Shown: positions 62,035 through 62,116 of the stretch, in pieces | How the letters are laid out: each line of letters opens with the position of its first letter | How positions within the stretch are numbered: the first letter of the stretch is position 1 | DNA from: a virus | Virus record (IMG/VR): IMGVR_UViG_3300044712_000732 | Location: 125,776 to 189,775 of that record | Length of the DNA stretch: 64,000 nucleotides | Reading direction: 5' to 3' (one strand) | Position numbers and translations under genes: made by a program | The notes under the pieces: model-generated | What the model was told of the DNA's origin: nothing | What the model saw: only the letters and a program-made list of their open reading frames with translations | Databases searched by the model: none

Positions 62035-62116
62035 TGTGGTGTATTCAGCCGATCCTGATAAGATCGAGAACTTGTAATTGGTATTGTAAATGTGGGTTCA
62101 AGTCCCACCACCACAA
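62035..62116 (+). tRNA. tRNA-like element with Ile-type anticodon hairpin (CGATC-CTGATAA-GATCG) but no D-arm at the canonical position and a 25-nt region containing GTAATTGGTA between anticodon and T arms
   Basis: Acceptor TGTGGTG/CACCACA perfect; T-arm GTGGGttcaagtCCCAC. Confidence 0.35.

Follow-up and report, generated by a model that had tools for sequence, protein, structure and literature searches.

To our knowledge, the segment order of the tRNA cloverleaf is treated as universal outside organelles. The circularly permuted and split tRNA genes of Cyanidioschyzon merolae and some Archaea carry their segments in a non-canonical order, with the 3' half upstream, the acceptor strands internal and a bulge-helix-bulge motif, and are repaired to a normal tRNA. 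Mitochondrial D-arm-less tRNA-Ser(AGY) and the armless metazoan tRNAs have no local D hairpin and an extended anticodon arm; their D/T-loop consensus is lost, and co-evolved organellar factors are needed. Allo-tRNAs and tRNA-Sec (8/4, 9/4 and 9/3; Mukai et al. 2017, PMC5389517) are likewise non-canonical, metagenome-mined and in some cases found in phages, but they alter the acceptor and T stem lengths and keep a normal segment order and a D hairpin. The tRNA-like structure of turnip yellow mosaic virus and the bacterial Y RNA YrlA attain a tRNA-like shape by another backbone path (PMC11472068); both are mimics that lack a decoding anticodon arm within a tRNA-gene context. The closest conceptual precedent comes from a different RNA class, the non-circularly permuted hammerhead and twister ribozymes (Eckert et al., Nucleic Acids Research 2023, PMC10085705), in which elements relevant to the three-dimensional structure are kept while the internal segment order is changed non-circularly. 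That paper, which does not report tRNAs, states that non-circular permutations had previously been unknown among natural RNAs. In the literature consulted, a hammerhead ribozyme variant is the only natural non-coding RNA for which such a permutation is reported (PMC10085705; PMC11472068). Here we describe two tRNA-like elements, E1 (62035-62116) and E2 (63759-63836), in the tRNA array of a phage sequence, IMG/VR record IMGVR_UViG_3300044712_000732; the 64,000 nucleotides analysed (positions 125,776 to 189,775 of the record) are referred to as the window.

Based on sequence comparison, E1 and E2 are probably isoleucine tRNA genes of a phage-borne class whose core is non-circularly permuted, with a D stem formed by two separated strands that we call X and Y. 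Like canonical bacterial and phage tRNA-Ile and tRNA-Arg (RF00005), members of this class have an acceptor stem of 7 bp; stems of 5 bp in both the T arm, whose loop is UUCRANU, and the anticodon arm, whose 7-nt loop contains U33 and A37; U8, A14, G18-G19, A73 (Ile) and A20 (Arg); an encoded or partial CCA; and a location within tRNA arrays. Unlike canonical tRNAs, they carry nucleotides 10-21 past the anticodon arm, their D stem closes the anticodon arm, and their D loop runs open into the T stem. Since the local D hairpin of the cloverleaf is absent, we place the elements outside the canonical tRNAs, as a new structural variant. In contrast to circularly permuted genes, the acceptor strands stand at both ends and the permutation is internal, non-circular and apparently unrepaired; in contrast to armless tRNAs, the elbow and core nucleotides are kept and the carriers are phages of ordinary bacteria. 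The presence of tRNA anticodon loops and synthetase identity elements separates the family from the plant-virus structure and YrlA, and the stem lengths of E1 and E2, 7/5 (acceptor/T stem), separate them from allo-tRNAs. The parts of the two elements are as follows.

62035-62041, + strand: E1 acceptor 5' strand TGTGGTG, 7/7 pairs with 62109-62115
62042-62044, + strand: E1 U8 and A9 (TA, invariant in 74/74 members) and an extra U
62045-62049, + strand: E1 strand X, TCAG (D-stem 3' positions 22-25), and C26
62050-62066, + strand: E1 anticodon arm CGATC-CTGATAA-GATCG, 5-bp stem, U33 and A37 in the 7-nt loop
62067-62071, + strand: E1 linker AGAAC from the anticodon stem to Y, aligning with the NGAAA-type linker of the family
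62072-62075, + strand: E1 strand Y, TTGT (D-stem 5' positions 10-13), pairing with X
62076-62091, + strand: E1 D-loop equivalent, A14 A15 U16 U17 G18 G19 U20 ... A, then U48
62092-62108, + strand: E1 T arm GTGGG-TTCAAGT-CCCAC, canonical 5-bp stem and TTCRANT loop, with family covariation
62109-62116, + strand: E1 acceptor 3' strand CACCACA and discriminator A73
63759-63767, + strand: E2 acceptor 5' strand ATCGGTG, 6/7 pairs with 63829-63835, then U8 and A9
63768-63772, + strand: E2 strand X, TCTC (positions 22-25), and A26
63773-63789, + strand: E2 anticodon arm ACTGG-CTTATAC-CCAGG, 7-nt loop
63790-63796, + strand: E2 linker CATAACT, matching the CATTAAC-type linker of subfamily b
63797-63800, + strand: E2 strand Y, GAGT (positions 10-13), pairing with X
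63801-63811, + strand: E2 D-loop equivalent AATTGGTGTA, then U48
63812-63836, + strand: E2 T arm GTGGG-TTCGAGT-CCCAC, acceptor 3' strand CTCCGAT and A73

A first-pass annotation made from the letters alone had reported both elements, placing E1 exactly and E2 one base too far to the left (63758-63835). The layout it described holds: perfect or near-perfect acceptor stems (7/7 pairs in E1, 6/7 in E2), canonical T arms with UUCRANU loops, an anticodon-type hairpin only 8 nt (E1) or 7 nt (E2) past the acceptor strand, and 25 nt (E1) or 22 nt (E2) containing AATTGGT between that hairpin and the T arm. In both elements the T arm is followed by the acceptor 3' strand and A73. The E1 loop CTGATAA, which it had called Ile-like, contains the anticodon GAU (62057-62059; AUY codons) and is accompanied by U20 and A73. 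The present analysis adds that the anticodon of E2, UAU (63780-63782; AUA codon), is also an isoleucine anticodon, that X and Y form a covarying helix, and that arginine tRNAs belong to the same family. In E1, X and Y are joined by C23-G12, A24-U11 and a G25.U10 pair (Y partners 62072-62074); in E2 by three Watson-Crick pairs, C25-G10, U24-A11 and C23-G12 (with 63797-63799), and A26 of E2 is also able to pair with U63796. The single acceptor mismatch of E2 is a U.U at 6:67, which recurs in other members. Both elements have U20 and A73, and CA follows the discriminator in both. The E2 tail is that of the phi92-type Arg members, the sole change being U20 for A20.

Canonical tRNA models do not recover the elements. 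ARAGORN called 16 tRNAs in the window but neither E1 nor E2, and the best Rfam scores were 17.7 bits for E1 (tRNA) and 19.4 bits for E2 (tRNA-Sec), against gathering scores of 29 and 47. Neither element has a local D stem-loop between positions 9 and 26; with only 5-6 nt between A9 and the anticodon stem, no D hairpin is possible there. Single-sequence minimum free energy (MFE) folding, which is usually uninformative for tRNAs, gave alternative and unconvincing folds with z of about -1.8 to -2.0. With a covariance model (CM) built from the family, the scores are 77 bits for E2 and 71.5 bits for E1 (E about 1e-15), well outside what chance would give; because both are in its seed alignment these scores are not independent, and the informative figure is that all remaining matches in the window, canonical tRNAs included, reach at most 22 bits.

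Relatives of E1 and E2 were collected by searching IMG/VR with a pattern combining the motif and the T arm, which returned 21 contigs with an identical layout in all, and relaxed patterns returned many more. At least 151 distinct relatives were obtained from IMG/VR contigs and cultured phages (E. coli phi92-like, Streptomyces, Ounavirinae and Maribacter phages). The strong conservation of the elements elsewhere answers the doubt, raised in the first-pass annotation, that they might lack counterparts in related genomes. Of the two explanations offered there, a shared non-canonical fold is borne out, in a more general form than was proposed, by the compensatory changes seen across unrelated phages, while a single rearrangement that was later duplicated is not favoured. 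A BLAST search of GenBank phages with an E2-type query matched 105 records, mostly phi92-like E. coli and Salmonella phages (Justusliebigvirus) and including one Ounavirinae record and others; a 77-nt type query matched 41 records, 40 of them Streptomyces phages and one a 462-kb uncultured phage. EGole, the Streptomyces phage record examined, is a Samistivirus, and Maribacter phage Panino also carries a member. Among 185,579 bacterial and archaeal species genomes the element was found on about 15 contigs, nearly all of them from metagenome-assembled genomes, so the family is essentially phage-borne. The stretches examined of the nearest huge-phage records, LR756501 and LR756504 (L001 and L002), contain no member (best CM scores 29-30 bits). 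At every locus examined the element stands among canonical tRNA genes. ARAGORN called none of the elements at 14 loci, and the Rfam tRNA model gave weak matches to some members (phi92 38.6, LPML1 37.3, EGole 30.8 and L036 31.5 bits) and none to most. In public annotation the element is missing (phi92), labelled tRNA-OTHER (Antha) or tRNA-Leu (EGole, where the loop reads GAU), or overlaid by a hypothetical coding sequence (CDS; Panino). Family members score 38-95 bits with the CM, which sets them apart from most canonical tRNAs, although a few of the latter reach 35-39 bits.

Four helices are supported by covariation: the acceptor, anticodon and T helices, and a helix in which the 3-4 nt past U8-A9 (X) pair with the 3-4 nt right before UAAUUGG (Y). 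When X and Y were located by these anchors, with no structure fitting, 113 of 117 X:Y cells were paired against 58 +/- 5 in shuffled controls, the pair types being CG, GC, AU and UA. In a MAFFT alignment of 39 members (A1) the four-helix structure pairs 97.6% of cells, compared with 59.9% when shuffled; changes on both sides are seen in 17 of 19 pairs, including 3/3 of the X/Y pairs, and sliding the partner columns by 1-3 lowers pairing to 38-44%. RNAalifold predicted the same 19 pairs from the alignment alone, X/Y helix included, and a 76-sequence alignment with Arg members has the same structure. Across the family the acceptor helix covaries at 7/7 pairs, position 13:22 is usually U.U (35/39; U-A in one subfamily), and X usually lies 1 nt (position 26) from the anticodon stem. 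The covariation of the X/Y helix indicates that the D stem is kept and that only the order of its strands is altered. Two other pairings of this region were considered. The MFE hairpin of the phi92 type, CCGA-GUAA-UUGG, which would sequester the GG, was rejected as a family feature because in other subfamilies the upstream bases are non-complementary and covary with X instead. A local D-like hairpin between Y and the tail past the GG was also rejected; the tail is a constant ACAU and position 12 varies between G and U.

In canonical numbering the element order fits 1-9, 22-43, linker, 10-21, 48-76. The blocks 10-21 and 22-47 are interchanged, so that the permutation is non-circular, of the type A-B-C-D to A-C-B-D. 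The positions that make tRNA tertiary contacts are retained: U8, A9, A14 and the A before position 48 (equivalent to A21) are each present in 74/74 members of the CM alignment, and 15:48 is A:U in 71/74 and G:C in 1/74. G18-G19 is found in all members parsed, having been selected for by sequence searches that were seeded on UAAUUGG. By analogy with established tRNA structure, the new junctions 9-22, linker-10 and 21-48 would join residues that lie in neighbouring layers of the core.

The identity of the anticodons and of position 20 points in the same direction. Anticodons are only of the Ile (UAU, GAU, CAU) or Arg (UCU, ACG, UCG, CCU, GCG) type, with UAU the commonest of the Ile type (30/74 members of the CM alignment), and the anticodon loops are standard across the family, with U33 and A37. 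All 17 Arg members of the CM alignment have A20, and 56 of its 57 Ile members have U20 (Fisher nominal p = 4e-17); a scan demanding a non-U residue at this position returned 78 Arg members, all with A20, and 2 Ile members; and among the 151 parsed sequences Arg members have A in 94/94 and Ile members have U in 54, A in 2 and G in 1. Each of three scaffold subfamilies contains both identities with the matching residue at position 20, which argues against a single inherited coincidence. A20 is the classical major identity determinant of bacterial arginyl-tRNA synthetase (ArgRS). Since A20 follows the Arg identity, the stretch acts like a genuine D loop despite its new position; the displaced D-loop-like motif noticed in the first pass is supported both in this way and by the pairing of the preceding strand Y with X. 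On the same grounds, selection for aminoacylation appears to act on these RNAs. The 3' ends are also tRNA-like: A73 is present in 57/57 Ile-type members of the model alignment, a C lies directly past the discriminator in 149/151 members, and a complete CCA follows it in 51/151, against 1.6% expected (nominal p about 1e-52).

These observations suggest how E1 and E2 may be used. They would be transcribed together with the array and trimmed like other tRNAs, with nucleotides 10-21 (the 5' strand of the D stem and the D loop) encoded past the anticodon arm, at the usual place of the variable loop. The X/Y D stem would run straight on into the anticodon stem, so that the two make a single long hairpin, and the D-loop nucleotides would form an open single strand that docks on the T loop before entering the T stem. 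Judging from the conserved positions only, the L shape may be rebuilt through U8-A14, A15-U48, G18-psi55 and G19-C56. The isoleucyl-tRNA synthetase (IleRS) of the host would then charge E1 and E2, and ArgRS the Arg members; on the ribosome E1 would decode AUY and E2 AUA, so that the phage would gain AUA and AGA-type decoding. As a guess, the topology may be kept in order to escape host factors that read normal D-arm connectivity.

An alternative view is that the tRNAs have no D arm but an extended anticodon arm and a variable region that is long and unstructured, much as in mitochondrial tRNA-Ser(AGY); AAUUGG would then not be equivalent to a D loop. The absence of a local D hairpin agrees with this view, as does the stacking of X/Y on the anticodon stem, which resembles the extended arm of D-arm-less mitochondrial tRNAs (PMC7609411, PMC4013460). 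However, the latter do not keep G18-G19 or T-psi-C (PMC7609411), while here A14, A15, G18-G19, N20 and the conserved A before U48 are ordered and spaced as in canonical tRNA, UUCRANU is kept in the T loop, and position 20 distinguishes Arg from Ile as a true D loop would; we therefore regard the D-arm-less explanation as unlikely. Another possibility is that the RNAs do not serve translation and are decoys for host anticodon nucleases or tRNA-modifying enzymes, regulators or primers. Phage tRNAs have been linked to evasion of tRNA-targeting defences, and canonical tRNAs with the same anticodon are often present in the array, for example tRNA-Ile(GAU) at 63679-63755. Yet a decoy for an anticodon nuclease would need no ArgRS determinants in its D loop, and such a role fits poorly with A73 in Ile members, strict A20 with Arg anticodons and a CCA encoded in a third of the sequences; moreover, phi92 has a permuted tRNA-Arg(UCU) without any canonical tRNA-Arg annotated or called in the surrounding 3-kb stretch. 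A non-translating role is accordingly quite improbable in our estimation.

The extra nucleotide and weaker X/Y helix of E1, together with several aberrant tRNA-like sequences in the array, might be taken as signs of decayed pseudogenes or of assembly and rearrangement artefacts, but the layout is kept through compensatory changes in four helices in no fewer than 151 distinct sequences, drawn from independent metagenomes and from cultured phages, and the invariant positions of these sequences are those that make tRNA tertiary contacts, which leaves decay or artefact very hard to credit. Processing of the RNA to canonical order, by splicing or by circularisation and cleavage, has a precedent in permuted tRNA genes, such as those of red algae, whose order is restored in the RNA (PMC3978253, PMC3218864). 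Here the acceptor strands are already terminal, so reordering would take two cuts and a ligation rather than one circularisation, and no bulge-helix-bulge motif or intron-like insert is visible; the conservation of the X/Y helix and linker fits the encoded transcript being the functional form, and repair is just as hard to credit. The odd layout could finally be a product of reading by eye, with a canonical cloverleaf in another register. Some members do have weak Rfam tRNA matches (30-39 bits), and some records label the element tRNA-OTHER or tRNA-Leu. Such a cloverleaf, named in the first pass as a refuting outcome, was found neither by ARAGORN nor by Rfam at gathering and permissive thresholds, with E1 and E2 at 17.7 and 19.4 bits and ARAGORN silent in 14 loci, and RNAalifold returns the X/Y helix; we consider this explanation close to untenable.

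Several points weigh against the permuted-tRNA interpretation or soften its support. The linker of 4-12 nt between the anticodon stem and Y is without a counterpart in canonical tRNA. Moving Y and the D loop back between A9 and X raised the number of members for which ARAGORN reports the correct anticodon from 2/151 to 103/151, but controls in which the segment was reversed, shuffled or deleted were called in 66, 56 and 1 of 151 cases, a moderate specificity that makes this test supporting evidence only. The restriction to Ile and Arg may partly reflect the design of searches seeded on UAAUUGG, and the sequences are phylogenetically related, so that the p-values above are overstated. E1 itself has an insertion peculiar to it, the extra U after A9, a G.U pair in X/Y, and a nearby canonical tRNA-Ile(GAU) that it duplicates, and could therefore be redundant or decaying.

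Other observations on the family concern neighbouring or variant genes. Contig L036 carries three permuted genes in a row, with anticodons GAU, UAU and CAU. In L105 (4100-4267, + strand) two adjacent members, GAU and CAU, show a one-base deletion in the 3' strand of the T stem, and the acceptor stem of the second could extend to 8 bp, which would make it an 8/4-like version of the permuted fold. The Panino member (L287, PP540027), at 3464-3543, is a permuted tRNA-Arg(UCU) overlapping the hypothetical CDS0068, and the same array contains a match to the Rfam permuted tmRNA (RF04321, 62 bits) at 2988-3196. A contig with permuted tRNA-Ile genes also carries a suppressor tRNA called by ARAGORN (L100:2608-2680, - strand; anticodon tta, reading UAA), which may be a sign of stop-codon recoding. 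An 88-89-nt tRNA-Ile(UAU) family is found at L029:264-351, L041:379-467, L053:7598-7689 (- strand), L110:3629-3719 (- strand) and about 25 other IMG/VR loci. ARAGORN calls these genes tRNA-Ile(tat); they have a normal D arm, GTTT-AATGGTA-AAAC, an encoded CCA and a second D-loop-like sequence, AGATAATTGG(T/C)NNAT, within a variable region of about 21 nt. This family could be a duplication intermediate (A-B-C-B'-D) toward the permuted fold, or a derivative of it.

The window is phage DNA with a G+C content of 22-27% outside the tRNA array, reaching 33% within it. Among its products are a DNA polymerase, a helicase, HNH endonucleases and a T5 A1-like DNA transfer protein. The cultured phages closest to it, which share about 40% amino-acid identity, are those of Flavobacteriia. 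The array, to which the 16 ARAGORN calls belong, extends from 60.8 kb to the window end; E1 begins 4 nt past a tRNA-Asp, and E2 begins 3 nt past the canonical tRNA-Ile(GAU). Between two tRNA-Tyr genes of the array lies an HNH homing-endonuclease open reading frame (62421-63125, + strand; PHROG 10822, E = 3e-46). The array also contains tRNAs of 84-95 nt with extended variable regions for amino acids whose tRNAs are normally class I (Met, Glu, Asp, Cys, Asn, His, Val). One long tRNA-Glu, for example, has the variable arm CTTC-TGAAAA-GAAG, and such genes often adjoin a normal-length tRNA of the same anticodon. The long versions are located as follows.

60836-60926: long tRNA version in the window
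61294-61380: long tRNA version in the window
61616-61700: long tRNA version in the window
63454-63538: long tRNA version in the window
63582-63666: long tRNA version in the window
L014, L036, L048 and L127: further loci with long tRNA versions

Several less regular elements stand in the same array. A tRNA-like sequence at 61710-61803 (+ strand), missed by tRNA finders, has an 8-bp acceptor (GGGGUGCG/CGUAUCCC) and a 4-bp T stem; its anticodon loop, CUGUAAA, reads GUA (Tyr), its variable arm is 7 bp long, and a regular D arm is absent. With the Rfam tRNA-Sec model the sequence scores only 17 bits. It was considered as a member of the permuted family and rejected, having 8/4 stems and neither A14 nor GG past a putative Y. 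Flanked by two tRNA-Glu genes, 61389-61463 (+ strand) is called tRNA-??? by ARAGORN, with a two-base anticodon (tc) and a loop 1 nt short, and scores 36 bits with the Rfam tRNA model. A stable three-way structured element occupies 63875-63945 (+ strand), between E2 and the next tRNA; it includes UAAUUGGGG, has no T loop, and the fold of 63837-63950 has an MFE of -30.9 kcal/mol (z = -3.56). The 53-nt hairpin at 61552-61604 (+ strand), with a 7-bp outer stem AGAAAAC/GUUUUCU and an inner hairpin TTGA-CTGCAAA-TCAA with a Cys-like GCA loop, is probably due to chance, its folding z of -1.1 not being significant.

The permuted architecture is real, widespread and apparently undescribed; full-text literature searches and reviews, whose coverage is incomplete, yielded no prior description of this tRNA fold. 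On balance, and with some reserve, we lean towards the broader proposal that this is the first natural class of non-circularly permuted tRNAs, which would reach the same L shape by a different chain path. The class is widespread among phages whose hosts are Proteobacteria, Actinobacteria and Bacteroidota, and in these searches it serves Ile and Arg only. It may have evolved because the altered D-arm connectivity hides these tRNAs from host factors acting on normal tRNAs, or makes them resistant to such factors, with the 89-nt family as a possible duplication intermediate. If confirmed, it would mean that the tRNA fold tolerates, and nature uses, non-circular permutation, and that IleRS, ArgRS, RNase P, EF-Tu and the ribosome apparently accept the permuted topology. 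Because members are present in cultured phages (E. coli phi92 and relatives, Streptomyces and Maribacter phages), the family is directly testable, and the permuted fold may offer a new scaffold for orthogonal tRNA engineering. AUA and AGA/AGG are rare codons in many bacterial hosts. Since the genes are unannotated, mislabelled as tRNA-OTHER or tRNA-Leu, or overlaid by hypothetical CDSs, phage tRNA repertoires would be undercounted, the missing genes being those predicted to decode AUA and AGA/AGG.

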